Assembly: GCF_018977255.1 (NCBI RefSeq)
Contig: NW_024704742.1
Coordinates: 4,094,001 to 4,158,000 of the forward strand
Source of the DNA: Callorhinchus milii
Taxonomy: Eukaryota
Direction of reading: 5' to 3'
Length of the DNA: 64,000 nt
Made by a program: the position numbers and the translations under genes. Under the pieces are notes generated by a model. That model was given only the letters and a program-made list of their open reading frames with translations. It was not told the origin of the DNA and did no database searches. Each line of letters begins with the position of its first letter. The stretch's first letter is position 1. Positions 804-37,427 of the stretch are shown here, piece by piece.

Positions 804-908
804 CGTATTCAGCCTGTACTTTGGCAGCAGGTTCAGGCCTGGGCTGTCGTCCTGTGTACAAGAACCTTTTCACTCCAAATGGCTTCAGGCGCTCAGCGAT
901 TGCTAGAC
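804..908 (-). CDS. GRHPR: GRHPR copy A exon 6 (glyoxylate/hydroxypyruvate reductase); gene continues off the left edge
   Basis: 105 nt, AG/GT flanked; (G)[34 protein letters not shown], close to human GRHPR exon 6. Confidence 0.95.
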
Positions 909-1705
909 CTTTAAAGAACAATCAGTACAAAATCACAGCCTGTGGGTGTTAAAAAAAAAACATTATAAACGACATTGAATGACCATTCTGTAACGCTCTC
1001 GTCTCTGAATCAGAAAATGTTGTGCGTTTATTCCAAGGGCCTGCTCTGGAGAGTCAAAACACTTTACCGTATACCCTGCGAAGCGCTTTGAGACGTCAAA
1101 ACGACGTGATGAGGCGCTGCATCAAATGCAAGGTTGTTTTTGTTATTATTCACAAATGAATAAAATGGGAGTTTTCATCAGGAGCAGGAACGAGGAAAGG
1201 AAGAACAAAACGATCGACTTCTGAAGAGAACTCGATGTTTCTTTCACACCATCGTTCATGTCGCCCAGATTGCATTTCCCAAATAGTCACTTCAAAGCCC
1301 TGTTGTTTAAAGGCAGAGATTGAATATTGAAGCAGGACGAGTTAATCGCAGGTGTGCCATCCGGGGAGGGTGTCTGTAGTCACCCCAAAATTATGCATAG
1401 TCCAAACTCAAAGGCAGAAAGAGAGAGACAGACAGGGAGGCTGAGAAGGCTGGCACTGAGTAAACTTGACAAGTGTGAAAATTATGTGTGTGTGTGTGTG
1501 ACAGAGAGACAGAGAGAGAGAAGGCTGGCTTGGCAAGGTACTATAGTCACAGTGTAACTTCCGATGGAAGACATCTTACATGTTAAGTTGACCTGATATC
1601 TGCATGGTTTTCATATCCACCAGGGTCTCAGTCCCAATATCTGGCACTCAGCTGTAACCTGCTCATTGAAAAGCTGCAAGACATGCAAATCAGAACTATC
1701 TGTAC

Positions 1706-1794
1706 CTATTCTTCCGAGTCCCACGATGCCCACCGTGCTCTCTTGCAGCCCAAAGCCACACAGCCACAGGGGCTTCCAGGCACTCCAGCCACCA
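1706..1794 (-). CDS. GRHPR: GRHPR copy A exon 5
   Basis: 89 nt, cag/gt; [30 protein letters not shown] with the Rossmann GxGxxG motif. Confidence 0.95.
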
Positions 1795-1849
1795 CTGCAA
1801 AGCAATCACATCAACAAGGCCTTCAACTAACCACCTTGAAAAGACTCCA

Positions 1850-2010
1850 CTGAATCACACACACTGATCAATTACACACACACACACACACTGATCAATT
1901 ACACACACACACACTGATCAATTACACACACACACACTGATCAATCACACACACACTGATCAATCACACACACTGATCAATCACACACACACTGATTTTG
2001 TACACACACA
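1850..2010. repeat. Minisatellite CTGATCAAT-(AC)n
   Basis: About 7 units visible. Confidence 0.9.
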
Positions 2011-2419
2011 TAACATTCTCACTCACACTGACAACTCCATGTAAAGTCTTAGTTGGGCAAGCGGAGAGAATCTTGCTCGTGTTCACAATGGTAAACTGAT
2101 CAGCTTTAGCTGGTTACACTCCAGCAACACCCCAATGCAAAGTCTGGGGTTCCTCGGCTTCAGCTCTTGCCAAACTGCAAGAGGGATAAGGAGGGTTCTT
2201 CCCTCTAGGGAGAGAGTGTGCATTCAAAACTAGACAAACAGAACCCCCCCACACACACGCGGAGCTCTCAATCTGGTTTGGATACGCTTAAACGTGGGGA
2301 TGGGTTTCCCCACGTGTCAGATGCACTCAAGACACAAATGCTCTCACACTCGAGACACACGAACAGCACATTCTGATCATCACGCTGGTATGTTGGAGGA
2401 TGACAGACACAATACTTAC

Positions 2420-2536
2420 TTCTTCACTTCCTCAACCGCCTCCATCAGTCTGCGGGATGTGGCCAGGAGTAAAGCCACGGTGAGCTCAGCAGTGGCGGCA
2501 GTCAGGACATCTGGGGTGTAGCCCACCCGGATTCCC
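2420..2536 (-). CDS. GRHPR: GRHPR copy A exon 4
   Basis: 117 nt, aag/gtaagt; [39 protein letters not shown]. Confidence 0.95.
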
Positions 2537-3124
2537 CTTCAACAACACGGTGAGAATAAAACTCAGCCCTAAGCTCAGTAATTTCACATTAAATTACCCC
2601 AGCAAACGTTTCATCTGATTCCAAAGGAAGCACCAACAGTATTTCATATTTCACGCAATGCCCTGATATCTGCACTGTTTTCAAAGAATAATAATAATAA
2701 TAATAATAATCCTTGCCTTATCGCGTCGTTGAGACGTCTCAAACCACTTCACAGGATATAGTGTAAAAGTGAATTGACTGTGTATTTTGTGGGCGAAACC
2801 CGGCAGCCACCTGCGTGCGCACAGCAGCGTCCCACGAAGGGTCGTGGAAATTCATATTGGGCCATTCATTTCATGGTCGACTGTGGGGCATTGTTGTGTG
2901 CAAACTGGCGGCTGTGTTCGCCTACGAATGCACAGTTGTGTAAATCTCTGTGAAGCGCTTTGAGACCTGCTGCCTACATGAAAGGGGCTATATCAAATGT
3001 AAGGATTATCGGTATATTCACAACGGGACCAGTCACAGTCAGTGAGAATTGCTGGCTGCCCCACTGAAGATACTGGTAATAAGTCAACGTTCAAAAAACA
3101 ATTCCACACAAAGTGTGACTTTAC

Positions 3125-3197
3125 CTCTTTTTGATTTCGTCCAGGGAGAGATGGTCGAAGCCAACTGAAAGGGTGCTGATAATTTTCAAATTTGGTC
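3125..3197 (-). CDS. GRHPR: GRHPR copy A exon 3
   Basis: 73 nt, cag/gtaa; [25 protein letters not shown]. Confidence 0.95.
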
Positions 3198-3806
3198 CTG
3201 AAAGAAGATCATACATGTTCCTAACTCTCTTCTGAAACGGGGTCGCTTTAGTTTTAATCAATGAAACAGGTTTCAATTGACATTCCACCTCCAATCCAGT
3301 GGTCAATTAGTGTTGGGAGTCCTGTAGCTCAGTGGTTATAGCACTCGCCTCGCAAGCGAGAGACCTGGGTTCGATTCCCGGCAGGTCAGGGCGAAACCTT
3401 GGGCAAGTTTCCTTACTCCACACGCCTGATAATAACCCCTCAAGAAAAAAAACAATAATAAAATCAGTCACTTGAGTCCACGACTGTCTGTGGGACTCAC
3501 TGCTGCTGTGAGCAATTGGCTGCCGTGTTTCGAACATGCAGTCAATTCACTTTACAGTATATTCTGTTAAGCACTTTGAGACGGGGGAGGGGGGGGGCGG
3601 GGAGGAAGGTCACCAACGGTGCGGTCGAAAAGAAAGATCTTCAGCCGAGACCTGAAAATAGGAAGAGAGGGAGCGAGACGAAGGGAGTGAGGAAGGCAGA
3701 GCCTCGGGGCATAGTGGCTGAAGGCACGGCCGCTGGCGGTGGAGCGGAGGACTCGGGGGACGAGGAGGAGGTAGCGCAGCCTAGTGGTAAGATATCCAAC
3801 CGCGAT

Positions 3807-3821
3807 AGCGCCATCTAGTGG
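3807..3821 (-). promoter_or_regulatory. CTCF consensus motif
   Basis: Minus strand reads CCACTAGATGGCGCT. Confidence 0.5.
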
Positions 3822-4121
3822 TTAGATATCCACTGAGCTAATGTCATCAGTTGTCACTATGAATGTGGCAGCGAGGCTACATGTCAGCAAAATGTTTCAG
3901 CTGCGCCCATTGACAACAGTGTCCGACAAGCGTCCACCTTGCTTGTCCAGCCTGGGCCGTGCTACCTGCTAAGGGCCTCGGTTTGCAGGATAAACGGGCG
4001 TTGAGCGGGAAGCAACCCGGCTCCCAAGGACTGGTCCTTCACCATGACGCCTTACAGCACAACCGGATTAGTGCCACATTGCAACACGTCAGCGCGGAGC
4101 CGCCGGAGGGGGTAACTGTAC

Positions 4122-4252
4122 CTGCCGCTTGTAAAATCTCCTCATCGATCTTGTCCGTTAACATGCAGTACAAGCCGTGCGCTCCCGCAATCCCCTTGAG
4201 CAGCTCCTGGCGGGTCACTGGCTCGTCCGAATCCCACTGGCCGATTGTGCAG
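4122..4252 (-). CDS. GRHPR: GRHPR copy A exon 2
   Basis: 131 nt, cag/gtac; CTIGQWDSDEPVTRQELLKGIAGAHGLYCMLTDKIDEEILQAAG. Confidence 0.95.
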
Positions 4253-5668
4253 CTGAAACGAGACGGGATAACAGTGATGAACGCCACCCTATATTCTCTT
4301 CCCCTCCCTCCCTCCGTCAAGGCACGTTTCAAGACCCTCCTCTTTAACCGAGTCTTTGGCCACACTCCTTACCCCTACCCTCCCTGCCCTCCGCACCCAC
4401 TGATCCCAACCCCCCCCCCCCCACCCCCAGCTCGGTTCCATATCCGTGACTGTCCAGCGCCTTAGGACTTTCTCCCGACGTGAAAGGCGCCTCATACATG
4501 TAGTTTCGTTATTGTTCTCGTGTACTCCCAATGGAAAAGAAATTAAAGGCCTTCAAGAGGGGAGAAGAAAAAAATGGCATTTAAAATGCCACGACAGAAT
4601 AAAGTCACAGGATAAAGTGGATTGACCGTGTATTTTGTGGGCGAAACGCGACAGCCGGTTGCGCATTGCAGTGTCCCACGTGCAGTCATGGCATTTAAAA
4701 TGCCATTGTGAGACAGCTCAGCGGTTTGATAAAGCTCTATATGAAATGCAAGGATTACTATTATTATTAAAATAATACCCTTTAGAACAGAGGATGCACA
4801 AGTGGAATAGTAACATAATGTAAAAACCTGCAACTGTCTGTCCTGTGTTTAGAATACTGCTGTGAACTTAGACGACTGTATCGACAAATTGCAGTAAAGG
4901 GATTTTGTTGTTAAATGCACCAGAGGTGACCCCTCTATCTACATCACTCGCACCCATCAAACTTTGACCAGTCACTGGCAGTGCGCAAAGTCTCTGAGAT
5001 TGCTGAGCTGCACTTGTACAATGCTTATTCTGCACAATTACACTGTGCAATCGGCGTTTCACTTGGGTCAACAAAAACAAGTCATGTGAAAACCTATTCA
5101 GCTCATACTCAGCAGCAGCTTCTGCTGCAAGAGAATAACTGATCCCGTTTGAGAAGAGCAACAACACTCCCCGATCCTAATGCTACAAATATAGCCATAT
5201 ATATTTTCTACCTTACTAAAGTGACTGGCGTACCTAGACGGCCCAGTAAAATCAGAGTGGGACTCTGTGTTTATCAGAACAGCTCGGGAAAATACCTCAA
5301 TGCAGTCAGTGAAAGGTGTGAGAAGTGGTGGGTAAATGTTGAACTGTATTCTTGTAGGGACAGAAAGTTAACGAATGCAACAAGCGCCGATCCTGTATTA
5401 TAGTGTGTGTGACAAACACTATATATGAGGGTCTAACTTGTGAGATTATATGAGGGTCTTAACTTGTGCGATTCAGCGAAATACTTGTAACTAATGAATC
5501 CTGGATGTGTCACGTTTGAATCCTCTGGAACGCCACCTTCGTGGATGCTGAGAGTGAGATCGGTGTCCTGAGTGAAGTTCCAGAGGACCTGCCAGCGAGA
5601 GGCAAGACTCTGCAAATCTTTATACGAGTCTTTAAAAATTAGAGCCAGTTCACGGTGGTAACCAGAGT

Positions 5669-5986
5669 GGAGTCCTGTAGCTCAGTGGTTAGAGCACTCG
5701 CTTTGCCAGTGAGAGACCTGAGTTCAATTCCAGGCAGAGGGTGAAACCTTGGGCAAGTTTCCTTACTCCACACAGAGCCTAATAATAATCCCTCCAAAAC
5801 CAAAAACAATAATAAATTGGTCATTTTCAATCTACGACTGTTTGTGGAACATTGCTGTGCGCAATTGGCTGCCGCGTTCGCCCACAAATATACAGTCAAT
5901 TCACTTTACAGTGTGTTCTGTGAAGCGCTTTGGGACATCCTCCCGACGTGAAAAGCACTATATCAAATACAAGGATTATTATTATA
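5669..5986 (+). mobile_element. tRNA-derived SINE, young short subfamily (full length)
   Basis: A and B boxes; near-identical to the copies at 12317, 17434, 29411 and 59844. Confidence 0.9.
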
Positions 5987-7069
5987 AATATCTGTGTCAA
6001 AGGAACGTGACCGGATATTGTACACATGCGGAGTCCTGTAGCTTAGAGGCTGCCGTGTTTCGCCTTCAAAGCACACAGTCAATTCACTTTACAATATATT
6101 CTGTGAAGCGCTTTGAGATGTCTCGAAGATGTGATAAGGCGCTATATCAAATGCGAGGATTATTATTATTTTTACTACTACACACTACACACACGGATCA
6201 CCCTGGAAACAACGCAACTGGTTCAGATACACGGTGACAAGGTAAAACCGCTTCCAACCGCACATCAAGACACGGAACGACCGGCAACAGCAAGACCTGG
6301 TCAGCGACATGCAACAGAGACGTTTCCAAAATTCGGCACAGTCTTAACATCTTAAATCCTAAAACTAGGTTCACAAAGAACCGTCAGGGCCTGAGGTGCC
6401 GTCAAACAAGGTCAGAGACTAAGAGAAGCCATAAACTCTCTCCGGCTGCCAAAGAGTTCCAAAGTGCTGCGCTCACTGAACACTACGCGGACTTCAATCC
6501 CTTTAAAAATAGATAAACGGGTCACTTCAATCCACGACTGGTCGCGGGGGGACGCCGCTGTGCGCAATTGGCTGCCGCGTTTCGCCCACAAAACACGCAG
6601 TCAATTCACTTTGCAGTCTATCCCGTGGAGCGCTTCGAGACGTCTCGAAGACGTGATAAAGGCGCTGTATCGGATGCGAGGATTATTATTATGATGATGA
6701 TTATTACTGGACCATCGGTAACACTGATAATCCCGCAGTGACCTTGGTCCCTGCCTCCGCCAGACCCGGAGTCCTTATTAACCGGACACTGAGGTGTTGC
6801 GTTTCCTTCTTTCCGTCATAGGATCTTTTCTTCTTTGAGAGAAGTGGAAATGTATATTCTAAGTCAACACACAAACAAACAAATAAATAAATATATTTTG
6901 GGGTGTTTTATTTTATAAAAAAAATAATCCTGCTGTGACCGCAGAGAATTCAGATTAAACCGTTTAGGGAGACTCGCGCCCAGAGAAGGGAATCAGGAAG
7001 GCACATGTTGCAAAAACATAAAACATGGAAAGGATTAGAAAAGGAAACCTTTTCACTTGACTTTGTAAA

Positions 7070-7712
7070 GGAGACACAGAGAGAGACACAGAGAGAGAGA
7101 GACACACATACAGAGAGAGAGACACACACACACACACACAGACACAGAGAGACACACACAGACACAGAGAGAGACACACACACACAGACACAGAGAGACA
7201 CACACACACAGAGAGAGACACACACACACACACACAGAGACACACACACAGAGACACACACACAGACACACACACACAGAGACACACACACACAGACACA
7301 GAGAGACACACACAGACACAGAGAGAGACACACACACACAGACACAGAGAGACACAAACACACAGAGAGAGACACACACACACACACAGAGACACACACA
7401 CAGACACACACACACAGACACAGAGAGAGACACACACACACACACACAGAGACACACACACAGAGACACACACACACAGACACAGAGAGAGACACACACA
7501 CACACACACAGAGACACACACAGAGAGACACACACACACAGACACAGAGAGAGACACACACACACACACAGAGACACACACAGAGAGACACACACACAGA
7601 CACAGACACACACACACAGACACAGAGAGAGAGACACACACAGACACAGAGAGAGACACACACAGACACACACTCACAGAGAGACACACAGACACACAGA
7701 GACACACACACA
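7070..7712. repeat. Compound (CA)n/(GA)n microsatellite in copy A intron 1
   Basis: Direct reading. Confidence 0.95.
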
Positions 7713-7779
7713 GTCTCCCCCCCGGGCCCCAGGCCTCGGGGTTGCGGGTCTGAGCTGCCCCCCCCACCCCCTCACTCAC

Positions 7780-7865
7780 ATCCCGGCCTCGGCCAAGGCC
7801 CTGAAACCCTCGAGAGGGATCCTCCGGCTCACAAACACCTTCAGCAGCTCCTGAGCCATCGCCAT
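7780..7865 (-). CDS. GRHPR: GRHPR copy A exon 1 (ATG 7865; alternative ATG 7859)
   Basis: [28 protein letters not shown], then a gtgagt donor in phase with exon 2; resembles human MKVFVTRRIPAEG. Confidence 0.88.
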
Positions 7866-7874
7866 CCGCCTGAA

Positions 7875-8700
7875 CCCCACCGGCACTGCCCTCCACCGGC
7901 ACTGCCCCTCCAGCCACACCGACACTGCCCTCCACCCACACCGCCACCTACTGCCAGACACCGGCACTGCCCTCCACCCCCACCGGCACTGCCCTCCGGC
8001 CACACCGGCACCCACTGCCCTCCAGCCACACCGGCACTGCCCTCCACCCCCACCGGCACCCACTGCCCTCCGGCCACACCGCCACCTACTGCCAGACACC
8101 GGCACTGCCCACCACCCCCACCGGCACTGCCCACCACCCCCACCGGCACTGCCCACCACCCCCACCGGCACTGCCCACCACCCCCACCGGCACTGCCCAC
8201 CACCCCACCGGCACTGCCCACCACCGGCACTGCCCCTCCAGCCACACCCCCACCGCCACCCACTGCCCCCCACCGGCACTGCCCCTCCAGCCCAACCGAC
8301 ACCTGCAACCCCACCCCCCCAACGGTCCTCCCCACCCCCCCCACCGCCCCCCCACCACCCACCCACACCCCAACGTCCTCCCACCTCAACCCCCCACCAA
8401 ACCCCCACCACCCACTCCACTCAGACCGCCCCCCACCCGCACCGACACCCCAACCCCCACCGCCCCTATCCCCAGCCCCACACCCACCTCACCCCCAAAC
8501 CCCCACCGCCCCCAATGTCCCCCCACCTCACCCAGTCCACACCCGCACCGACACCCCAACCCCCCAACGTCCCCCCCCCCACCGCCCCCCCAACCCCCCC
8601 ACTCCCCACTCAGACCATCCTCCCAGCCCCCAGACCACCCCCCACCACACCCACCAACCCCCCACCCACACCGTCCCCACACCCCCACCGCCCCCACAAA
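7875..8700. repeat. C-rich minisatellite (CCACCGGCACTGCCC units) grading into low-complexity C-rich DNA
   Basis: Direct reading; dense G-runs on the minus strand. Confidence 0.9.
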
Positions 8701-8855
8701 CAGTTGTGGATCGAAGTGACCGAATTATTACGATGATCACTAATAATATGATTTGAAGGGATTATATATATATATATAAAAAGTAACGATTGCGTCAAAA
8801 AAAAAGAAACGTGGATTTCGGGGATTGTGTTTTAGGTGAAGCCCAGACTTTGGGG

Positions 8856-8889
8856 TTTATTTAATGAGGATTAATGATCATCTTTTATT
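8856..8889 (-). terminator. Candidate polyadenylation signals of GRHPR copy B
   Basis: Two minus-strand AATAAA hexamers (8884-8889, 8856-8861) about 90-120 nt after the stop codon. Confidence 0.6.
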
Positions 8890-8974
8890 GGGTGTAACGC
8901 TGAACAGCGCGTCCGCAGCCCATCGCACCGTCGCGCCCGAGTTACGGGCGTCTTCCTGCGCTTCGCGACTCGCT

Positions 8975-9096
8975 TCACAGCGTCAGTTCCTTTGGCATCG
9001 GTGCACCTCTCAGGCCCGACAGGAGATTATTGGCAGCCAATACGGACATGGTCGTCCGAGTCGCGATGGTGGCGCTGGCAATATGGGGCAGAATAA
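8975..9096 (-). CDS. GRHPR: GRHPR-like copy B exon 9 (last coding exon, TGA at 8975-8977)
   Basis: 122 nt; (V)[39 protein letters not shown] with the catalytic His in PHIAS; not in the ORF track. Confidence 0.95.
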
Positions 9097-10247
9097 CTGG
9101 AAACACAAGGCAATATCCATTATTATCTCTCTCTATGTACATATATATATATATATATTGTTTGTTTTAAAAAAAATCATCTCCGCTGAAGCCACTTTTA
9201 CACAAGTGCCAAAAAGGTGCTTTAAAAATTAATCAATCAATCAATCGATCAAAAAAACTCGCGGGTCATGGTTGGGGGGGGGGGGGGGGGGGGTTTGAAG
9301 AAAGAACTCGATCAAAGAAACCTTTAAGGAAGTGTTCGTTGACGTAACCGTTTCTGCCGAGAAACCCTGTACAATGTGCGTGTTATTCTGATGGAGGAAT
9401 CATCGGAGATCTGGTTCCGGACCTCATTGGGGGGGATGAGGTTACAAGTGGGCGATTCCCTGTACAACACTCCAGTTTACGGGACGGTTGAAAGGAGATC
9501 GATGAGCAATTGGAAAGCGCCTCAAGGAGTATGGAGAAACGACCGGGAAGTGCGATTAGAAGATCAGCTGCAATCTACTAAACTGGTGGAACAGACACAA
9601 AAGAGGGCCGAAAGGTTCCTATATCATGGAGTCGTTTATTCCAAATCTCCTGTTGTGTGATGCAGCCACAAGATTAGTGTGTAAAAAAAAAGGGGGGTTT
9701 TCTTCCAGTAGCTGACTTTGGAGAACCATCACCCAACTGAGAAACCCGAGCCTCCAGTCCACGGTGGGAGCAATCCAGCTGTGTCCTGCGGCAACGCAGC
9801 TCGGGTGGGGCAGAGCAATAGGTCTCGGTTGATTGGGAAATCAACCGGAATTCACAGTCCTGCCTGGTTTCTGGGGGTGGGGGATTCATGCTGGAAGGTC
9901 CATCTGGGTGTAAGACAACGGTATGGACTGGATCGAGTTCAGCTATAATGGGCTTTCCTAGATCCACCCTCTCCTCATCACCGACAACAACTAACGTCAA
10001 ACAGCCTATGTAACTCATTGTCTGAATTCGAGACCCTGTCCGGGGTGAAGGGTGTTATATAAATGCAAGTTGTTGTTGAACTCACACGATGAATGATCTC
10101 TCGGTTGAGCGACCCCAGAATGACTGACACCCATGGACCTCGGGAGGAGTCCGTGTCTTCGTAAGGGACAGAATATTGGAAGGTAGAATGTCTAATTTGG
10201 CAAGATGTCAACATTTTGAGGAATACGATCGACTACTTCTGACTTAC

Positions 10248-10378
10248 CGCAGTTTTTCAGAGTGAAGAGAGGGTGGTCAGTGGGCAGTGGCTCAGGAACA
10301 GTGACATCCATTCCTGCTGCTGCGATCTGCCCAGTGGTCAGAGCCTGATACAGGTCCTCCTGATTCACCACAGCTCCT
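10248..10378 (-). CDS. GRHPR: GRHPR-like copy B exon 8
   Basis: 131 nt; [43 protein letters not shown] (DVxxxEP motif). Confidence 0.95.
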
Positions 10379-10639
10379 CTGGAGAACGAAACAAACACTG
10401 ATCAGAGGGTCAGAGATGGCACACTCATTGACAGCAATCATGAGTACATGTAGTGACTGTATTCATAGGTAAACACTGCAACCAATTTGCATGCAACAAT
10501 GTTGGGACAAACAGCCAGAAAGCAAACAAGTTCTATCAAGGATAGTTGGCCAAGGATAGTAGGAGAAGCTCCCTTTCCTTTTTGAATGGGACTGTGGGTG
10601 GGTTTAGGCCTGTAGTTCCATGTCCATCTGAAGGATGGT

Positions 10640-11160
10640 TGACGTTGCAGTACTTTCAAGACTGGTCTGGAGTCTTCTCTCCGCAACCTCATCACCCCCA
10701 TCCTCACCTGGCCCCACCGGCTCCCCGTCACTCAGAGGATGCAGTTCAAGATCCTGGTCCTCACCTTCAAAAGCCCTCTACAATCTCACTCCTCTCTACC
10801 TCTGTGACCTCCTAACTCCCTACCAACCTGTCCGCGCTCTCCACTCAGCGGGCTCCGGCCTGCTTTACGTCCCCCGCCTCGCGCGCCCCACCATTGGCGG
10901 GCAGGCCTTCAGCCTCTCTCCTCCCACCCTCTGGAACACCATCCCACAATCCCTCCGCCTCGCGCCCCTCTCTTACCTCTTTCAAGACCCTCCTCTTTGA
11001 CCGTGCCTTCGGTCACCCTCCTACCCCTACCCTCCCCGCCCTCCACCCCTCCTGATCCCAAACCCCAGCTCGGGTGCAGATCCCTGACTGTCCAGCGCCT
11101 TGGAACGTCCCCTCTGACCTGAAAGGGGCTGCACAAATGTAATTTGTTGTTGTTGTTGGG
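10640..11160 (+). mobile_element. L2-clade LINE 3' fragment
   Basis: Degenerate ORF2 end (PITPIL..LP..QFKILVLTFKAL), C-rich 3'UTR, stem-loop and (GTT)n tail. Confidence 0.8.
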
Positions 11161-11201
11161 GGTTCACTTTCTGGCTGTTTGTTATTTTATCAGTGTCCCA
11201 C

Positions 11202-11337
11202 CTGCTCGTGTTTATTAACACAGCCGTCTTTTTCATCTTGGAAAACAAATCTTTGTTGTACAAGCCCTGCGTTTCAGGGGTCAAGGCACAATGTAAGGTT
11301 ACAAAGTCAGATTCCTCAGCCAGTTTGTCCAAAGGCA
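11202..11337 (-). CDS. GRHPR: GRHPR-like copy B exon 7
   Basis: 136 nt; [46 protein letters not shown]. Confidence 0.95.
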
Positions 11338-12165: not shown

Positions 12166-12270
12166 CGTACTCGGCCTGTATCTGTGCAGCAATATCCGGC
12201 TTAGGCTCAAAATCTGTGTACAGAAACTTCTTCACACCAAATGGCTTCAAGCACTGTCCAACGGCTATAC
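12166..12270 (-). CDS. GRHPR: GRHPR-like copy B exon 6
   Basis: 105 nt; (G)IAVGQCLKPFGVKKFLYTDFEPKPDIAAQIQAEY. Confidence 0.95.
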
Positions 12271-12316
12271 CTGTAGGAGAGAGAAAATCAATATTGAACG
12301 TCACTTTACTGGGATA

Positions 12317-12585
12317 ATTTCCAGGCAGAGGGCGAAACCTTGGGCAAGTTTCCTTACTCCACACAGAGCCTAATAATAATCCCTCCAAAACCAAAAACAA
12401 TAATAAATTGGTCATTTTCAATCCACGACTGTTTGTGGGACATTGCTGTGCGCAATTGGCTGCCGTGTTCGCCCACAAATATACAGTCAATTCACTTTAC
12501 AGTGTGTTCTGTGAAGCGCTTTGGGACGTCCTCCCGACGTGAAAAGCGCTATATCAAATGCAAGGATTATTATTATTATTATTAA
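12317..12585 (+). mobile_element. 5'-truncated young SINE next to the copy B exon 6 acceptor
   Basis: Near-identical to 5725-5986. Confidence 0.85.
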
Positions 12586-13077: not shown

Positions 13078-13166
13078 CTATTCTTCCCAGTCCCACAATT
13101 CCCACCGTACTGTTGCTCAGTCCGTAGCCGCACATCCACAGGGGCTTCCAAGTTCCCCAGCCACCA
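13078..13166 (-). CDS. GRHPR: GRHPR-like copy B exon 5
   Basis: 89 nt; [30 protein letters not shown]. Confidence 0.95.
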
Positions 13167-14262: not shown

Positions 14263-14379
14263 TTTTTGGCTTCAGCCACCGCCTCCATCAGTCTGCGGGA
14301 TGTGGCCAGGAGTAAAGCCACGGTGAGCTCAGCGGTGGCATCAGTCAGGACATCTGGGGTGTAGCCCACCCGGATTCCC
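14263..14379 (-). CDS. GRHPR: GRHPR-like copy B exon 4
   Basis: 117 nt, aag/gtgagt; [39 protein letters not shown]. Confidence 0.95.
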
Positions 14380-14944
14380 CTTCAACAACACGGTGAGAAT
14401 TATTACACATCAACGTTCCAGGTTACCTCCAGCCTAAATAAGGATTAAAGCCTCCGCAATTTGATCAAGGAATCTCGTTCTTAAGTTTGCTTGAAATAAC
14501 ATTTTAACAACAACAGCAGCAACATGCACTTATGTAGTTACCCTTCCAGGCAGGGTAGCGTCTCAGAGAGCTTAACAGCGGTGGAGCCTGACTCCGAACC
14601 GGGGTGGTGGGGGGGGGGGGGGGTGAAGGTGACCGTAAGCACAGTCGAAGAGGAAGGTTCTCAGGCGGGACTTGAAACAGGGGAGAGAGGGGGCAAGGCG
14701 GAGGGATTGAGGGAGAGCGTTCCAGAGTTTGGGGGCGCAGTGGCTGAAAGCGCAACAATACCATACAGTCAAAACCTGTTGTGTAAAAAAAAGTTGTGAT
14801 AACGTTTCCATTATTCTGTTTATCTGATTTCTACTTAATTTCCTGCGTCGATGAAATACCTCTCTGTACTTTCAGACATAAATTCAGGCGCTATATCAAA
14901 TGCAAGTATTATTATATCAAGTGAAAGTTCAGATGAGCAATTAC

Positions 14945-15017
14945 CTTTTTTTGATTTCATCCAGAGAAAGGTGATCATGTCCCACAGACATAGTGCTGAT
15001 CACTTTCAGATTGGGGC
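14945..15017 (-). CDS. GRHPR: GRHPR-like copy B exon 3
   Basis: 73 nt; [25 protein letters not shown]. Confidence 0.95.
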
Positions 15018-15229
15018 CTGTGAACAAGAAATGGTTTGGAGGTGAATTCATTCATGGCAAGAGTTCCAATTTCTAGTTTCAAAGAAACGTTTTAAGAGAA
15101 AAACATTTTTACTTTCCAATACAGTAACTAACCTCTCTTTGGCTGACAGCACAGTACACCGACAACACCCTATTTAAGAGGTAAATACTCCACTTGCCGC
15201 TTAGTGCTGAAACCTTTCTTATGTGGCCA

Positions 15230-15770
15230 TGTTCGGAGAAAGGCAACACCTCCCTCATTTCCACAGTGAAGCAGTCGAGGACAGGACCACCAAGGTTGAG
15301 GTGAGATGGTGGAGAAGGATAGAATGGTCAACAAGTGTCAAAGGCAGCAGAGAGGTCAAGGAGGATGAGGAGACATAGGGAGCCCTGGTCACAGGTGGAC
15401 AATATGTCATCTGTCACACTTTGTCCAGGGCTGTTTCTGTGCTGTGGGCGGCACGGAAACCCAATTGGAGGAGTTCGTAGAGAGAGTGGCGGAAGAGGAA
15501 GGAGCGAAGCTGGGAATGAACGACTTGTTCCAGGGCTTTGGAAAGGAAAGGGAAGTTGGAGATGGGGCGGTAATTGGAGAGCAGAGATGGGTCCAGGGAA
15601 TGTTTTTTTTTATTTATTAAGGATGGGGGGTGATGACGGCTGTTTTTAAGGGGGTGAGAACAGTGCCAGTGGACAAGGAGAGGTTGATGATTGCTGTGAG
15701 TAGACGAGCAAGGAGGTGGAGCTGAGAGGCAAGGAGATGGGTAGGGATGGGGTCGAGGAAGCAGATGGAA
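15230..15770 (-). mobile_element. L2 LINE RT-region fragment
   Basis: Translates in pieces to LDPIPTHLL..IINLSLSTG..LKTAVITP and LLDLSAAFDT. Confidence 0.75.
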
Positions 15771-17163
15771 GAAAGAAAATATTTTGTTGCGTCTGTCCTG
15801 AAATTGCCCTTTGTAACTCCAAACCTATTTAAACCTGTAAACTCTACTGCCTTAGTGCATCCTAAAGTAAAGTAAAGGTTTACTCTCTGAATCCCATTTA
15901 TAATTTTATACACATCTATAAAGGTCCTCTCCTGAAGTGCTCTAACCTGTCTAATCCTTTTCGCCTTTTCCTCTAACACTGGGGTTCATCCCTGCTGTTT
16001 TCCTCTTCTAGAGCTTGGGAACCCCCTCACCTTCTACCACAGAAACCAGAACCGTATATTGTACGGAAATCTCACCTGCCTGTTTTCAAGTAGATGGGGT
16101 ACTACTCAAAATGAGAAGGAAGTCTCCCCAGGCTGTTCTGTTAAACAATCCGCCAGATAAATTGATTATTCACGCCATGCCGATTTGTGAACCTTGCAGT
16201 GTGCAAATTCATTGCTGTAGTTACCTACAAATACACATTGCCCTTGACAGCAGTTAACGGCGAAGCACTTAGAGGCTTTGATGTTCTAGGCACTACAACA
16301 AGGGCAAGGATTCTGATCATCCTCATGTAAAGTGCAGCATTTGTGTTGTACAGAATGAATGTACTGCATCAGTGGTTCTACTTCGGTAGTTAAATTACGA
16401 TTGGAATAGCATTACAACCCTGACGTGTCGCCCCTATTTCTCCAAGAGCAAACAGAGTAATGGATATCCAGAGCTTAAATGGTACCATCCCATCCGGGAA
16501 GGACACTCCGAATACTTTATCTCAGGGCAAATATACACCTTAAGATCCGTTGCAAAGCAACAGCGAACTGAACTGTTCCAGACATCACAAAATTCCAACC
16601 AAAAACACAAGGACTACAGCAACTTGCATTTATAATCGCGTCCCAGAGCGCTTTACAGTGGTGGAGCACGACACCAAGCCAGGGGGAGGCGAGCGGAGGC
16701 ACGGTCGAAAAGGAAGTTCTTCAGGCGCGACCTGAAGATGGGGAAGGAAGGGGCGAGGCGCAGGGATAGAGGAAGAGTTTTCCAGAGTTTCGGGGCGTAG
16801 TGGCTGAAAGCGCGCAATGTAATGAAAATATTACATTTAAAAAAAACCTTAGTGGCAACTGATACTGAACCCTTTAATCAGTCAAAAGGCTGGAAGCCTA
16901 TTCGTGATTGAATCACTTTTTTTTTTGAAATAGTGACACACTGGGCACTACTTAATCCTCAGGCTTTGCCTGTGAATTTCCTTGGGTGTGCGTAATAAAA
17001 AAAAACCCAACAAGAAAACCCTTTTGACTGGAGTATCATTAAAGCAGTTCGTAGAAAATCCTGGAAAACAGCTAATATGGCCTGAAAGTCAAGCGGAATA
17101 AAGATTTGTGCGCATTAATGCGTTACGGGGCTCGTGTCACGCAGATTCGCTTCATTCTCATAC

Positions 17164-17294
17164 CTGCAGCGTCCAAAAGTTCTTTGTCGATTTTTTCGGT
17201 CAATAAGCAGAACAGGCCATGGGCTCCAGCAACTTGCTTCAGCAGCTCAGACCTGGGGACGGTTTCATCAAAATCCCACTGCGTCACCTCACAG
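17164..17294 (-). CDS. GRHPR: GRHPR-like copy B exon 2
   Basis: 131 nt; [44 protein letters not shown]. Confidence 0.95.
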
Positions 17295-17433
17295 CTGAAA
17301 TACACACCGGAATCAACCGTTCCGGACAACTGATGTCAATTGCGGCAAAAACGAAATATCGCTAAAAGATACACAGGCCGGGCCAAGAAGTCGTGATACC
17401 ATTACAAAGTCCAAGAGAAAATGATGATTTTCT

Positions 17434-17716
17434 GATGATAATAATAATAATCCTTGCATTTGATATAGCGCTTTTCACGTCGGGAGGACGTCCCAAAGCA
17501 CTTCACAGAACACACTGTAAAGTGAATTGACTGTATATTTGTGGGCGAACGTGGCAGCCAATTGCGCACAGCAATGTCCCACAAACAGTCGTAGATTGAA
17601 AATGACCAATTTAATTATTGTTTTTGTTTTTTTGGAGGGATTATTATTAGGCTCTGTGTGGAGTAAGGAAACTTGCCCAAGGTTTCGCCCTCTGCCTGGA
17701 ACTGAACTCAGGTCTT
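17434..17716 (-). mobile_element. Young SINE, head truncated at a (GA)n tract
   Basis: Reverse complement of the 5669 family. Confidence 0.85.
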
Positions 17717-18449
17717 GATGAGAGAGAGAGAGAGAGAGAGAGAAAAAAATACGTTCATTTAAATAAATCTATCCCACGTCTTCGAGATACAGTGTCGCAT
17801 TTTGTGAACTGGGACATGGTCTGTATCTTCAGGTGGTCTTGAACGTCTCTTGTGTCTGTACGGACGCATCTTCCCTCCCCAACCCCACGCTGTCCGATTA
17901 CCATCGCGCTGATACATTCGAGCTCCGCTCCACGTGCTCCAGGAATATGGATTTAATGCCCTGATTAAATAATGACACGAAGTCTCTCTCTGCACGTCGT
18001 GCTGTAAGAGCTCACGTTGAACAACCACTCCCCCCCAACCCCCACCCCCCAGCCCATTCCAAAAGATCCACCAACCCCTCCCTCGCGGGAAAGCGATGAG
18101 ATTGCAACTGGCTTGAAATCCGTCAGGATGTTTCCTGGCTCCCGATACTCGCACGAACAGGCCAGCAGAGGCTGCACAAGAGCCACGCTCACTTCCGATG
18201 CCTAAGACCCCCAACCCCCCCCCCCCACCCCACCCCCAAAAAAAAAAATTCCACACGTTCGAATGGCAATGGAAGATGCTCGATGGGCAATGTCTGGCTC
18301 AGACGACACGCGGGGTTGGGAGTTGTCTGTGCTTTTTACACTGAGCCGTCTTTTTTTTTAAGTCACTCCAATCCGAAGAGCTCTCAGCTTCGAGACGCCC
18401 GACTTCACCGAATTGAAATCGTTGCATGCGTTCAATGCGGGAACACACG

Positions 18450-19060
18450 ACAACAACAACGACGAAACCTTTTGATATACTTATATACCGGCCTTCGTAC
18501 CGAGCGGTGTCCCGGAGCGCTTCACAGTGGGGGGAGTCTGACAAACGAGCCAGGGGGAGAGAGGGAGGGGGTGAGGTGACCCAGAGTGCGATCAAAAAGG
18601 AAAGGTCTTTAGGGGGGATTTGAAGGTGGGGAGGGAGAGAGTTCCAGAGTTTTGGGGGCGCGGTTGAAGGCACGGCCACCGATGGCGGATCGGTGGGCAC
18701 GCGGGGCAAACAGGAGGCCAGAGCCAGCGGGTGGTGGAGTGGTGGGGGGGGGCGGGGGTGAGCAGGTCGGAGAGGTCGGGAGGTGCGAGGACGTGAAGGC
18801 AATTGGAAACCATTGAGAGGATCTTGAAATCGATCCGTTCGGTGATTGGGAGCCAGTGGAGCCCGGCAAGGACTGGCGTGATGGGGGTCCGGAGTTTCGT
18901 GCGGGCGAGTATCCGGGCGGCAGAGTTTTGAATGAATTGGATATTGTGTACGGTGGAGCTGGGGAGACCAGCGAGGAGGGCGTTGGAATAGTCCAGCCGG
19001 GAAAAGTGACAAAGGTGTGGACGAGGGTTTCAGCTGTTTCGGTTACGAGGCACAGGCCAA
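18450..19060 (-). mobile_element. L2 LINE 3' fragment
   Basis: ORF2 C-terminal remnants (APKLWNSLP) and a (GTT)n tail. Confidence 0.75.
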
Positions 19061-20164
19061 TAATGTACTACTACTATTAATAATAATAATAATATCGATA
19101 AGAGTCTTTAACAACCAGAGGACATCCCAAACACATCACAGGATATACTGTAAAGTGGTGTGACTGTGTATTTTGTGGGTAAACACATGTACAGCAGGAT
19201 TGAGCAGGGGCACTTTTTTTTTCCCCCTTTAAAAACAATTTTCTATTTGTCCCCTGAACTTTTCCTCCTATGAAAACGAGATCGGTTACATTTTCGACAG
19301 CAGCACACAGCGCTTGCTTCAGCGAAACAGGTTAAAGTCCCTTCACACAAGGCACCGGGTAATGTGAGCCGCAACCATGTAGTGGGATGCCTATAAAGTG
19401 AGCCTGTAACGAAGGCCACGGGGTTAGAGCCCACTGTATGAGCCCCAATCCTTGTCCGACACTTGTATCTGGGGAACGGCATCAACCCACAAACGGACCT
19501 TGGAGAGGGTTCAAGGAAGAGTGACGAGGATGATTCCCGGGAGTCCGAGTTCAATGTGTCCTCTGAGGGTAAATATAACGGGAGACACACTTTTTCCTTT
19601 ACCCCCCACCCCCCGCCCCCCCCTCACCCCCAAACAAACGCTGAGAGACAGGTGATGGAAGCGGGATTTTTGACATTGTTTGCAACCGCAGAACTGGAGC
19701 TAAAAGGTTCAAAAGTCTCAAAACGATGGAAGATGGGGACGAAATGTTGGGCAGGTGGAAGAAAGGTTACATTCCAACTGAGTAATGGTTTACGTACAAC
19801 GGAACCAAACGAGTTTGTGTCTGTGAACGATCCTAATGCCCTTACAGGGAGAGTGGCAAAACTCAGGCAAACACTGGGCTCTCAGGGGACGCGATGACTG
19901 GACTGGGAAGGGGAGCGGTGGAGGGATGAAAGCTGCTTGTGAGGAGAGTAACTTTTCCGTGGTTCCTGAGCAGGGGGAGTGGGGGGGAATTTTTTTCATT
20001 GTATTTAAATAAATTTCAGGCCCATCGCCAGTTTGCACACACGTACACAGATAGGATACGGAATGCCTTGCCAGGAGGAGTGGTTCAGGCTGAATCCTTA
20101 TTAGCTTTCAAATGGGAACTAGATAAATACCTAAACAGGAGTAAACAACTGGGGCGTGGGGAAA

Positions 20165-20535
20165 GGAGTCCTGTAGATCAGTGGTTAGAGGACTCGCCTC
20201 ACAAGCGAGAGGACCTGGGTTCGATTCCCGGGCAGGGGCCGAAATGTTGGGCAAGTATCCTTACTCCACACGCCTCTGTTTAGCCATCAGTCAGTAGGAA
20301 CCCGGCTGTTAGTCGATTGGCGGATCGCTTTTCCGGGGGCAATAATCCCATCATATAAAAAAAATTTGGTCACTCAATCCACGACTGTTTACGGGTCATT
20401 GCTGTGCGCAATTGGCTGCTGTGTTTCGCCTACAAAATATACAGTCAATTCACTTTACAGGATATTCTGTGAAGCGCTTTGAGACGTCTCGAAGACGTGT
20501 TAAGGCGCTATATCAAAAACAAGGGCTATTATTAT
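20165..20535 (+). mobile_element. tRNA-derived SINE, long subfamily (similar copies near 21051-21437 and partials near 11500 and 27155)
   Basis: tRNA head with GGTTCGATTCC B box, an extra ~60-nt middle segment, and an ACGTC-TCGAA-GACGT tail. Confidence 0.85.
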
Positions 20536-21499
20536 AATAAAGGGCAGGTAAATGGGACTGAACAATTTTCTTAAAAGAACCAGTACCGACTTAAAAGGGC
20601 CGAATGGCCTTCTTCTGTTCTGTGAATGTTATAGTTCTAAAATTTCTAACACAGACCTTGTGCACAGCGCGAGTAACTCTCACAGGTCAGATACAACGTG
20701 CTCGGTCAAGGCGCGAGCACAATACAGATCAATCTTTTTACACAAGACTGTAAATGCAGCACAGAGAAGAGCGCAGATCTCTTTACCGTGGACATGTACA
20801 GCACAGGTCAGAGACACCAGAGAGTGGGAATCAATAAATGTTTCTCAGACTGGTAGGATGTGTCGAGTGGTGTGCCGCAGGGGTCTGCACTGAGATCTCT
20901 ACTTTCTAATGATAATCCTTACATTTGATATCACATCGTATCACATCAACACACACCACCTTCTGTCTCAGCGGCAAGAGCGTTACCAACTGAACCGGGC
21001 TGACAGGGGCATAAATCAGAGGATTTGTATCCAATACTAGATATTAAATTGGAGTCCTGTAGCTTATTGGTTAGAGCACTCACCTCGCAAGCGAGAGGAC
21101 CTGGGCAGGGGGGAAATCTTAGGCAAGTTTCCTTACTCAACACACCTCTGTTTACCTCGCAGTAAATAGGATCCAGATTGCTATTTGATTGGCGGATCGC
21201 TTTTCCAGGGGTAATAATAACACCTTCAAAAAATTAATAAAATAAATAATATGGTCAATAATAAACTCAATCCACGGCCGCTTGTGGGACACTGCTGTAC
21301 GCAATTGGCTCCTGCATTTCACCCACAAAATATACAGTCAATTCACTTTACAGTATATCCTGTGAAGCGCTTTGAGACGTCTCAACAAATTGATAAGGCG
21401 CTGTATCAAATGTAAGGATTGTTATCATTATTATTATTTTCTTGGGAAACTGACTATATAAGACTTCAGGAGGGCATTGATAGACTTGTGATGGGAAGC

Positions 21500-22010
21500 A
21501 GTGTGATCCAAAGCACAGTCGAAAAGGAGGGTCTTGAGATGGGTCTTGAAGGAGGCAAGGAAAGGGGGCGAGGCGGAGGGACTGTGGGATGGAGTTCCAG
21601 AGGGTGGGGGCAGAGTGGCAGAAGGTCCACCCGTCAATGGTGGGACTGGCAAGGCAGGGGACGTGAAGCAGGCCTGAGCCCGCTGAGCGGAGGGAGCGGA
21701 CAGGATGGTAGGGGGTTAGGAGGTCACAGAGGTTGGGGGGTGGGGGGGGAAAACAAGACCGTGGAAGGCTTTAAAGGTGAGAACCGGAATCTTGAACTGT
21801 ATCCTCTGTGTGATGGGAAGCCAGTGGAGTCGGGCGAGGATGGGGGTGATAGGGTCGCGGAGCCTGGTACGGGAGAGGACACGGGCTGCAGAGTTCTGGA
21901 TGATCTGCAGCCTATGGAGGGAGGAGTTGGGGAGGTCTGACAAGCAGGGAGTTTGCATAGTTGAGCCTTGATGTAATGAATGTGTGTATGAGGGTTTTGG
22001 CTTCCACTAA
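21500..22010 (-). mobile_element. L2 LINE fragment
   Basis: LHRLQIIQNSAARVLSRTRLRDPITPILARLHWLPITQRIQFKIPVLTFKA. Confidence 0.8.
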
Positions 22011-22872
22011 AAAGATATATTGTTCACGTAAGCACTTTTCTCTGGAGATGAGAGCCACGTCAAAGAGTTCGTAACCGGTATAAAACAGAGCTGAAGCTTT
22101 GCGCCCCGGCATGGTAGATGAAGAAGTTTTTAACCTGCAGTCGGAAACCTGAGAGACAATGAGAGATAGGTCTCCACCACTGGTGTTTTCTAAGGTGGTA
22201 TCAGCCAAGATGGTCAAACATTATTGGGATTACATGAAATTACATAGAGTCACTATGCCAAAGATGAATAGATAGTTACTATGAGTTACAACAGATAAAT
22301 GAGGGCTCTTTTAATATCCCACCCTTCTCGAGAACCCTGGATCTTCACTCCTATCACAAAATAAATCGTAATCTTAAACCCGTTGTTGCTAAAAGTTTAG
22401 GAGAAATCAGATTTTTCCAACGGGGATCAGACATCGGAGTTTTCTGCAGAAACTGTACTAACAAGTTCCGAATGAGCATAACTAGATGAGAGGAGCAAAA
22501 TATTACACACTTTACAAAAAGAACCCAATGAAACATTTAGCCTCAGCTCAGATCAGACGAGATTCTCCTTGTTGTTTATTTCCCTTAAATTCTTCTCTGG
22601 CTCACATCTGCCGTGTAAAAAAAAAAGTGACTGCATTTGACAGCAACTCTAAAGTACTCTGAGACATTTGGACGTGATAAGGTTCTTTTCTTCTATGTTG
22701 GGACAGACCATTCCATTGTACTATTAACCGCGTCTGTCTTTGATAAGATAAAACTAACTCCAAGTCTGAAATACTCTGAGCAAAATACTCGACTTTTGAT
22801 GTGCTTTCTCAGCAGCGCAAACGTGGCAAGAGCTCCTCTCGGACGTTCGCAAATCAAACCGATCTCCCTCCA

Positions 22873-23060
22873 TGTGTCAGCCTGGCTCAGTGACAGCACT
22901 CTCGCCTCGCAGTCACAAGGCTGTGGGTTCAAGCCCCGCTTTGGGACTTGGAATCACGCAGTCTAAGCTGACACTCCAACGCAGTGTTTGGTTTTGCGCT
23001 AAATTTTCGGAGGTGCCGTCTTTCGGATGAGTCGTTAAACAAAAGGTCCCGTTTGACTCC
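22873..23060 (+). mobile_element. Older Deu-domain-type SINE fragment (relatives near 13545-13760, 32980-33172, 40090-40280, 49430-49620, 56992-57180, 58240-58440)
   Basis: tRNA-like head followed by GGAGGTGCCGTCTTTCGGATGAG..GTTAAAC; relatives carry AAAGATCCC..GGCAC and GTGTCCTGGCCAA, resembling the AmnSINE/SacSINE Deu domain. Confidence 0.6.
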
Positions 23061-24585
23061 TCGCATTATTAATGTTTGTGGGGCGTTGTTGGCATTGACT
23101 GACTGCCATGTTTGCCTGTACAACACTGTTCTATATTAAATACAGGTTTACCTTTCAACCGCCTTCCTTTTTGTAATTGCATCATTGATTTAGGTTGCGC
23201 CCACCCTCTACTTCGGTGTTTTTCAAGGGAATAGTCATCTTTTGCCCACAAAATAAACAGTCAATTCGCTTTACAATATATTTTGTGAAGCGATTTGAGA
23301 GGTCTCATCGACATGATAAGGCAATATATCAAATGCAAGGATTATTATTATCTTCCCTCTATCACATTTATTTCAAAGAAACATGGATTTTTTTTTCTCC
23401 CGAATCTCCAGTCTTAAATTCCCTCCTCATCCACATTAATTCACTATTTATCTCATCTGCTTGTAAAATGCTGCTCCTTTCTAACATTCAATTCATTTCT
23501 AACTACGTTCATTTTGTAAAATGTTTTGAGATGTTTCTTTTGCATGCTCAACCCCATTACAATTGTGTTTTTCCCTATACTTGGTCCCATCGGCTCAGTT
23601 TCCATCAACTTTTAACTATAAATCTGAAAATTCGTTATTGAACACACAATAGAATTGAATACAAATCTGCGATGAAAGAGATTAAGGTTCTGATAATTTA
23701 GGGATTGGAAAGAGATGGAAAGGACCAGAGGTAGAGACAAGGAGATGAATCAAATTCTCGCCTTCCCCGATTTCCTTCATTTGATCTGCCTGGGCCAACG
23801 TCACTTAACAACAACAACAGCAACATTTCATTGATAGAGCGCCTTTCACGTCGGGAGGACGTTCCAAGGCGCTGGACTTAAACCGATTACCAGGAATTGA
23901 ATAAAAGAATCTGGACTCCTTGGAGCTGAAACGGCTTCAAGGGCACACGCTGGGCAACAGAATGTAAGAATCGAGCCAATGCTTATATTATATGAGGTTA
24001 GGACGTCCTCTCGACGTGAAAGGCGCTATACAAATGTAACCTTGTTGTTGTTGTTAGTAGGAATTCTTATATTACGCCTTAAGAAATTCCAGTCCTTAGA
24101 CCCCTGATCACAAGATGGGTTTGGAGGAAAGAAATATCTTTTTGACCCGTCCAATCCTATCTTCCAGAACACCCATTCTACCATCGATCCAGTCATTGGC
24201 TACCATCCCGGTGTTGTCCTGAAATTGCCCCATTATAACTCAAAACCTACATCATTGTATCTCGGTGCCTCCTACAAGAGTATAGGTTTTTTTGGGGGGA
24301 GGGGTTAACCCTTAGGACCTTTTCTCACAGCAGGCACTAGCTGTTCAACCATAGTTCTCTTCGCTTCTGGTGACTGGAGAATGAAGTTCGATGAAACAAT
24401 CCAGCAGAAAGGAGCTTTCACAGGATGCCTACTATAGCACTGGGGAGCAGGGCAGGGCGGCTCTGGGTGAGGGACATCAAGTCAGTATTGCAGTACAATA
24501 AGAGTGATGTGGCTGCCGTTATGAGCCGTCTCCCGTGCGTGTGTGTGGATGGATGTCCACCTGAGTTGCTTTGCCCTTTACTTAC

Positions 24586-24749
24586 ATGCCAGAGTCCTGC
24601 AGCAAATTCACTCCCTCCTGTGGGACCCGACGGCTCACATACACCTTGGCCAGTTGGTGTTGACTCCGCTTCATGACTTGCGCTGTGTGACTGCTCCCCA
24701 CAGCCCTGCTCAGGTGTGCCAGCACCTTCACACTATGCCCCAACCACAT
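24586..24749 (-). CDS. GRHPR: GRHPR-like copy B exon 1 with N-terminal extension (ATG 24749; other in-frame ATGs at 24674 and 24860)
   Basis: MWLGHSVKVLAHLSRAVGSSHTAQVMKRSQHQLAKVYVSRRVPQEGVNLLQDSG, then a gtaagt donor in phase with exon 2; joined CDS is 1068 nt with no stop. Confidence 0.85.
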
Positions 24750-37309: not shown

Positions 37310-37427
37310 CTTTCATTTTCTTCTTTATCCGATAATTTCTGCACCCTATCTCTTTGGCCGTGTCGTAGTGATACACAAACGGTGACGCAGGGAAGTTGTC
37401 ACTGAACATCCGCCTGGCTTTGCACTC
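37310..37427 (-). CDS. ZCCHC7: ZCCHC7 penultimate coding exon
   Basis: 118 nt, cag/gt; ECKARRMFSDNFPASPFVYHYDTAKEIGCRNYRIKKKMK. Confidence 0.92.

Follow-up and report, generated by a model that had tools for sequence, protein, structure and literature searches.

We analysed a window of 64,000 nucleotides (nt) from Callorhinchus milii (contig NW_024704742.1, positions 4,094,001 to 4,158,000), which carries two copies of the glyoxylate/hydroxypyruvate reductase gene GRHPR head to tail on its minus strand. The two copies, here GRHPR-A and GRHPR-B, stem from a duplication that is older than the divergence of sharks and bony fishes: GRHPR-A is of the human GRHPR type, and GRHPR-B is the orthologue of teleost grhprb. 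From sequence comparisons, we consider it likely that the tandem pair divides its labor, with A an NADPH enzyme acting mainly in the cytosol, B a mitochondrial NADH-linked glyoxylate/hydroxypyruvate reductase, and B later lost in therians, squamates, and neognath birds.

GRHPR-B is complete, with nine exons encoding 355 amino acids (aa) at 24749-8975 (-), and its protein is identical to database protein P0201 (named Callorhinchus milii GRHPR). GRHPR-A lies downstream, its start 1.1 kb past the B stop. The original prediction had taken 804..24749 as holding two copies, but the window edge cuts A after exon 6, leaving exons 7-9 beyond the window start; the 200 A codons in the window are the first 200 residues of the 329-aa P0206, also named Callorhinchus milii GRHPR. 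Exons 2-6 are of the same size in A and B (131, 73, 117, 89, and 105 nt), every A and B intron within the window is bounded by GT..AG, and exon 3 differs at 20 of 73 nt while 20 of its 23 codons encode the same residue. Overall, the A and B proteins are about 66% identical and carry opposite cofactor loops.

GRHPR-B is also spliced as a transcript of its own. We compared it with contigs from four public runs of two studies, which were guessed to be RNA and which the spliced contigs show to be RNA. All eight introns are spliced out, seven of them in all four runs and the last in three of four; contig depth varies widely among the runs and gives no ranking of expression. In the three runs with an exon 1 piece listed, contigs reach 29-100 nt 5' of the B ATG. 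We take the Met at 24749 as the B start because sharks and rays conserve its equivalent, and for that reason prefer it to an in-frame ATG at 24860, the start in the older model P0208. That ATG lies 5' of all listed contigs, which cannot themselves show a start. For GRHPR-A, one contig (run X3) carries its three distinguishing letters in exon 4.

The B protein has the two-domain fold, with an NAD(P)-binding Rossmann domain (PF00389 and PF02826), of a D-2-hydroxyacid dehydrogenase of the GRHPR type. Its top match in both sequence and structure is human GRHPR (PDB 2GCG; GHRB subfamily; E value 3e-149), the primary hyperoxaluria type 2 gene, with 69% identity, a template modeling score of 0.92 over the target, and the same active-site residues: Leu86, Val110-Gly111, Trp168, Arg272, Asp296, Glu301, His320, Ser323, and Arg329 of B all match. 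Arg272, Asp296, and Glu301 are encoded in exon 8 (131 nt, 10248..10378 (-)), and His320 and the B-diagnostic Ala322 in exon 9 (coding part with stop, 8975..9096 (-); joint found in three of four runs). The catalytic Arg, Glu, and His and the Asp, Trp, Ser, Arg, Leu, and Val-Gly positions are taken to have their roles in the human structure. At ten active-site positions, no fewer than 53 of 54 A sequences and 122 of 124 B sequences share one residue, and so the substrates of A and B are probably the same; for the window's A, the C-terminal residues come from P0206, outside the window. Human GRHPR has the same cofactor loop as A. It differs from B in its Gly-Arg NADPH loop, in having no long extension, and in serving cytosol and mitochondria with one protein, whereas B has Asp211 and a 35-residue extension.

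To date the duplication, we drew a comparison set from three homologue searches and three cluster look-ups and built trees without the N-terminus and without the cofactor loop. A 119-row tree, from which two fused and two partial rows were dropped and in which one fused insect protein was trimmed as outgroup, places 65 Asp-loop and 53 Gly-loop rows on opposite sides of one branch (Shimodaira-Hasegawa-like approximate likelihood ratio test, 98), and its long outgroup roots inside A. In a 67-row tree with nine non-vertebrate outgroups, A forms one clade (support 98/93) that includes chimaera, sharks, ray-finned fishes, coelacanth, lungfish, and tetrapods, among them a rhinoceros; the B proteins of bony vertebrates (96/99) and of cartilaginous fishes (97/89) are each well grouped. 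Since A spans cartilaginous and bony groups and excludes every B, the duplication preceded their split, whatever the root. The copies also do not cluster by species, the pattern that the original prediction had named as its refutation. In approximately unbiased (AU) tests, a sister relationship of the window's A and B was rejected (p-AU 0.0005), as was a single clade of all cartilaginous-fish A and B (p-AU 0.022).

The teleost names grhpra and grhprb imply a genome-duplication pair; the trees put the A/B split far earlier. Teleost proteins named "b" are not nested within teleosts but group with the B of gar, sturgeon, bichir, coelacanth, and tetrapods, and B is also found in sharks, so we rejected an origin of A and B in the teleost whole-genome duplication. 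Zebrafish proteins are absent from the comparison set, which includes other cypriniform proteins named "b." Both teleost grhprb and the proteins that NCBI calls "GRHPR-like" in sharks, amphibians, turtles, crocodilians, and monotremes resemble the window's B in clade side, Asp loop, extension, and Ala322. Further out, no lamprey, hagfish, or amphioxus sequence was found among 20 named representatives out of 150 relatives. The loop residue is mixed in those 150 (Gly in 45, Ser in 35, Asp in 32, Asn in 16, other in 22), and presequence-like N-termini also occur in the non-vertebrate relatives P0230, P0234, and P0246, of which two carry an Asp loop. The B-like combination of Asp loop and presequence may thus have arisen more than once or be ancestral.

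The two proteins differ in the cofactor loop, encoded in exon 6 (105 nt; 804..908 (-) in A, 12166..12270 (-) in B). It reads TGRQPR in A and TDFEPK in B: the NADPH-type loop of human GRHPR is present in A (Gly-Arg-Gln-Pro-Arg at 838-852) and absent in B (Asp211-Phe212-Glu213). B Asp211, encoded at 12212-12214, aligns with human Gly184 and follows a strand (residues 206-210) in the predicted structure, where the predicted local distance difference test score (pLDDT) averages 90. Among 180 vertebrate rows, from which five fused or replaced ones had been dropped and which are not independent, since isoforms and some 55 additional teleost B rows are counted, this position is Gly in 54, Asp in 123, Asn in one, and a gap in two. 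Sorted by type, the residue is Gly in all 54 A rows and acidic or amide in all 124 B rows, Asp in 123 of them. The first loop Arg is present in 38 of the 54 A rows, and the second place is Arg or Lys in all 54. An exon 9 residue that is unlinked to the loop sorts alike, as Gly in 54/54 A rows and Ala in 123/123 B rows. For the family, NADH preference is described as marked by an Asp in the loop where strand beta-B ends (PMC6303947). In human GRHPR, two loop arginines, numbered 184 and 188 in one account (PMC4749974) and corresponding to 185 and 188 in PDB sequence numbering, are described as holding the 2'-phosphate, and the enzyme is reported to bind NADP(H) more than 100-fold better than NAD(H) (PMC11670150). 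By analogy with the human enzyme, A presumably prefers NADPH, while the loop of B predicts a preference for NADH.

The N-termini differ as well. Before the first strand, A has 9 residues and B has 35, so that the short N-terminus and NADP-type loop originally assigned to A and the extension and Asp loop assigned to B are both as described. An extension of at least 20 residues is found in 111 of 115 scorable B rows (those with a Met start and an intact first strand) and in 6 of 48 A rows. Leu, Arg, Ala, and Ser abound in the first 25 residues of the B extensions, which average 3.7 Arg/Lys and 0.46 Asp/Glu. A charge rule of our own making, as distinct from a trained predictor (net charge of at least +2, with no more than one acidic residue among the first 25), is passed by 98 of the 111 B extensions, compared with 11% of 6629 windows from the bodies of the same proteins. 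The first 25 residues of the window's B, encoded in exon 1 (coding part, 164 nt, 24586..24749 (-), which also holds the first strand and is spliced to exon 2 in all four runs), contain two basic and no acidic residues and have a hydrophobic moment of 0.64 against a body mean of 0.40; residues 1-28 are of low confidence (pLDDT <50) in the model. By these measures, the N-terminus of the window's B is basic, poor in acids, amphipathic, and probably unstructured, as a matrix presequence would be. Mitochondrial presequences vary in sequence while their character is conserved, and the B N-terminus is likewise variable in sequence but keeps its presequence-like character. Three A-type models, P0036, P0037, and P0060 (reedfish, sterlet, and caecilian), have presequence-like extensions as well, and A may also be targeted in some lineages.

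Taken together, these features suggest that B is most likely a glyoxylate/hydroxypyruvate reductase of mitochondria with a preference for NADH. The two GRHPR genes arose by tandem duplication before cartilaginous and bony fishes split. The A copy, continuing the human GRHPR lineage, keeps the Gly-Arg-x-x-Arg/Lys loop, through which the 2'-phosphate of NADPH would be bound. B has a presequence-like N-terminus, predicted to be cleaved on mitochondrial import, and an Asp where strand beta-B ends, predicted to favor NADH. In the matrix, B would then reduce glyoxylate to glycolate and hydroxypyruvate to D-glycerate with matrix NADH, and A would carry out the same reductions mainly in the cytosol with NADPH. 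Hydroxyproline breakdown yields glyoxylate in mitochondria, where GRHPR is thought to clear it (PMC11670150, PMC8779045), and B may also reduce hydroxypyruvate from mitochondrial serine transamination. In its later history, the pair stayed linked in most lineages, was split between chromosomes in the two teleosts checked, and underwent local conversion in the window genome. A shuttle in which B and A together would pass reducing power from mitochondrial NADH to cytosolic NADPH was dismissed on what we take to be thermodynamic grounds.

Several observations weigh against this picture. In the trees with outgroups, B as a single clade is weak (55/21 with 67 rows), and dropping exons 4 and 8 gave no better support (47/53). 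At the cofactor loop, the second phosphate-binding position is still Arg or Lys in 121 of 124 B rows. In all nine tinamou B rows, Asn replaces the loop Asp, possibly a return to NADPH use or a sign of relaxed selection, and an A-type protein of the toad Pelobates cultripes (P0245, one partial model) has an Asp loop, unlike that of frog B, possibly through an independent cofactor switch. The loss of B in therians is based on protein annotations rather than on inspection of genomes. As to compartment, 103 of the 111 B extensions keep an in-frame Met near the start of A, which could yield a cytosolic B, and human GRHPR, of A type and without an extension, is described as residing in cytosol and mitochondria and as using NADPH in the latter, so that a second enzyme is not required (PMC11670150). 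The proposed split between a cytosolic NADPH enzyme and a mitochondrial NADH enzyme therefore stands in part: the presequence and the NADH-type loop of B are conserved across the 124 B rows, whereas a strictly cytosolic A, the step of which we are less sure than of any other, is weakened by the dual location of the human enzyme, by the extended A rows, and by the Met kept in B.

The same observations fit an alternative that we regard as unlikely, in which cofactor and tissue set the copies apart but compartment does not do so cleanly. Both would be dually targeted, B by means of two in-frame starts, like AGXT in omnivores, and A by means of a cryptic signal like that of the human enzyme. The kept Met (Met26 in the window's B, at 24672-24674 (-), with a purine at -3) would be the second start, 4 of 115 B models do start short, and some of the six extended A models are presequence-like; AGXT, in the same pathway, uses two-start targeting (PMC8779045). 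Against this, turtles, crocodilians, and tinamous retain the extension but have lost the internal Met, and the upstream ATG is included in the three listed contigs. In teleosts, the Met sits within an R-x-M-S motif that resembles an R-3 processing site, and it may be kept for cleavage. The internal Met of B may thus be either a second start or part of a cleavage motif.

A second alternative, which we judge improbable and less probable than dual targeting, would have B work in the opposite direction, as an NAD+-linked matrix dehydrogenase that oxidizes D-glycerate or another D-2-hydroxy acid and feeds carbon and NADH into mitochondria. Nearly all dehydrogenases of the family are said to use NAD+ (PMC6303947), the mitochondrial NAD pool is described as oxidized at about 100 to 1 (PMC11670150), and B has fixed residues of its own around the active site, among them Ala322 beside the catalytic His. 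The substrate-binding positions of B, however, equal those of A and of human GRHPR, and the equilibrium of both known reactions is generally known to lie far towards reduction.

The divergence of the two copies bears on a third alternative, that B arose recently by a lineage-specific duplication, or is an artefact of assembly, and does not differ from A in function. Exon 4 (117 nt; 2420..2536 (-) in A, 14263..14379 (-) in B) is nearly identical in A and B, and two chimeric B/A database models of Callorhinchus milii, P0203 and P0208, switch in exon 8 and exon 4. The proportion of differing synonymous sites (pS) is 0.17 in exon 4, compared with 0.42-0.91 in the other five shared exons (Fisher p = 6e-7). 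Excluding exon 4, pS is 0.68, the synonymous rate dS about 1.8, the nonsynonymous rate dN 0.26, and dN/dS about 0.15. The earlier account of heavily diverged synonymous sites is thus correct outside exon 4 and fails within it, and its conclusion of an old duplication under purifying selection agrees with this dN/dS as well as with the trees. With the other exons near saturation, a separate B transcript, both types present across jawed vertebrates, and grouping by species rejected, a recent or artefactual origin is refuted, and we give it almost no weight.

The near-identity extends from exon 4 into the preceding intron. It covers 21 nt of intron, identical between A and B, and the first 102 nt of the exon, with 3 differences in 123 nt, at 14278..14400 (-) in B and 2435..2557 (-) in A, and it is a local gene-conversion tract. 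The original prediction had included neither this tract nor the apparent loss of B in therians. Inside the tract, the window's A has Ala at a position that is Asp in 50 of 54 A rows and Glu in three. The A and B proteins of this species also share Met295, Leu241, and Leu267, which are found in 0, 0, and 1 of 53 other rows, and their exon 8 proteins are 93% identical, which hints at further conversion tracts outside the window. The chimeric models P0203 and P0208 probably arise from such tracts and are likely assembly or prediction artefacts, although B-to-A read-through splicing, which would join a presequence to an NADPH loop, may lie behind them. Across eight cartilaginous fishes, A-B identity per exon within species was not above cross-species identity overall, and thus widespread recent conversion beyond the Callorhinchus milii genome was not shown. 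Wholesale conversion in crocodilians, raised by ten A and B proteins in one 90% cluster, was rejected: the alignment gives distinct types, joined in the cluster via a fused gene model.

For the distribution of B, we searched with alligator B and considered the best 120 of 8000 scored candidates, down to 531 bits, some of them without a species name. These matches include cartilaginous and bony fishes, amphibians, turtles, crocodilians, tinamous, platypus, and echidna (monotremes at 622-626 bits), and the only birds with B among them are the tinamous (rows P0125, P0132, and P0185-P0191). No named therian, squamate, or neognath bird is among them, an absence from a ranked search that suggests that B was lost several times, in therians, squamates, and neognath birds. 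Where both copies occur, they are mostly linked. For 26 of 30 species with both, the longest contig is of equal size for A and for B (106 kb, 0.7 Mb, and 1.5 Mb are among these sizes), and three fused gene models (alligator, sturgeon, and softshell turtle) run B then A, the order seen in the window. The four exceptions are a catshark with an aberrant B model, Xenopus laevis, possibly because of homeologues, and two characiform teleosts, whose separated A and B would fit reciprocal loss after the teleost genome duplication.

Plants offer a comparable pair, an organellar NADH enzyme and a cytosolic NADPH enzyme, of which peroxisomal HPR1 serves photorespiration. HPR1 and HPR2 belong to the same subfamily as B, and HPR1 is named as NADH-preferring (PMC6303947). 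The plant pair differs in coming from an independent duplication. AGXT resembles B in belonging to the same pathway and in that its location depends on whether a presequence and an upstream start are retained (PMC8779045); it is a single gene with two starts, whereas the GRHPR pair consists of two genes whose cofactor loops differ.

In literature listings and abstract openings, which cover subscription journals thinly, we found no paper on the origin, cofactor, location, or loss of the GRHPR-B paralogue. The names grhpra or grhprb occur in seven papers. Two of these, on zebrafish, handle the genes as isoforms or counterparts of human GRHPR (PMC8943054, PMC5191836), one of them using a mosaic grhpra/grhprb double crispant for a cyanide question only (PMC8943054), and a single mention of GRHPR, with no model reported, is found in a review on kidney models in zebrafish (PMC6162634). 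B is an annotated but uncharacterised gene, and the deep A/B split is probably already visible in gene-tree databases. The corrected orthology matters for zebrafish models, as grhprb is an older paralogue with a different cofactor loop and not a teleost duplicate of human GRHPR. The pair would also suit studies of cofactor switching, being similar in sequence but opposite in loop.

More tentatively, and with rather more doubt than confidence, we suggest that jawed vertebrates ancestrally had a dedicated mitochondrial NADH-linked reductase beside a cytosolic NADPH enzyme, and that the therian loss of B left human GRHPR to cover the matrix with a fraction of one NADPH enzyme, shaping human vulnerability to hydroxyproline-derived oxalate. 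In humans and mice, one protein acts in both compartments and the shares are inseparable; the two-gene system of fish or frog can be tested by single knockouts. If the proposed division is true, knocking out A and B would tell glyoxylate cleared in mitochondria apart from glyoxylate cleared in the cytosol; the size of these two shares bears on primary hyperoxaluria types 2 and 3.

The remaining exons complete the two gene models. In GRHPR-B, exons 2 (131 nt, 17164..17294 (-)), 3 (73 nt, 14945..15017 (-)), and 4 are supported by the gene model and spliced contigs, exon 5 (89 nt, 13078..13166 (-)) encodes the glycine-rich dinucleotide-binding loop, and exon 7 (136 nt, 11202..11337 (-)) falls in PF02826 and is also covered by spliced contigs. 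In GRHPR-A, the coding part of exon 1 (86 nt, 7780..7865 (-)) is preceded by a GC-rich tandem repeat; exons 2 (131 nt, 4122..4252 (-)), 3 (73 nt, 3125..3197 (-)), and 5 (89 nt, 1706..1794 (-)) follow the gene model and match P0206, and exon 4 follows the gene model and has the contig in run X3. The stretch 7074-8695 holds an AC/AG microsatellite of 640 nt, which lies in A intron 1, and the GC-rich tandem repeat, which runs for about 800 nt directly upstream of the A start and fills most of the A-B intergenic gap. The introns hold many interspersed repeats of about 300 nt (e.g., 274-574, 5669-5985, 12312-12580, and 17440-17715), 75-96% alike, with a tRNA-like head and a short AT-rich tail, which are probably a family of short interspersed nuclear elements.

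Upstream of B by 11 kb, on the same strand, lie the last three exons of a neighboring gene (35987..38838 (-); ~38742-38838, 37312-37428, and 35987-36512). Its last exon and tail gave no Pfam match and no useful Atlas match. Together, these exons code for a CCHC zinc knuckle interrupted by an intron (zf-CCHC lead, score 0.88) and for a Lys/Arg-rich tail, and the gene is probably ZCCHC7.

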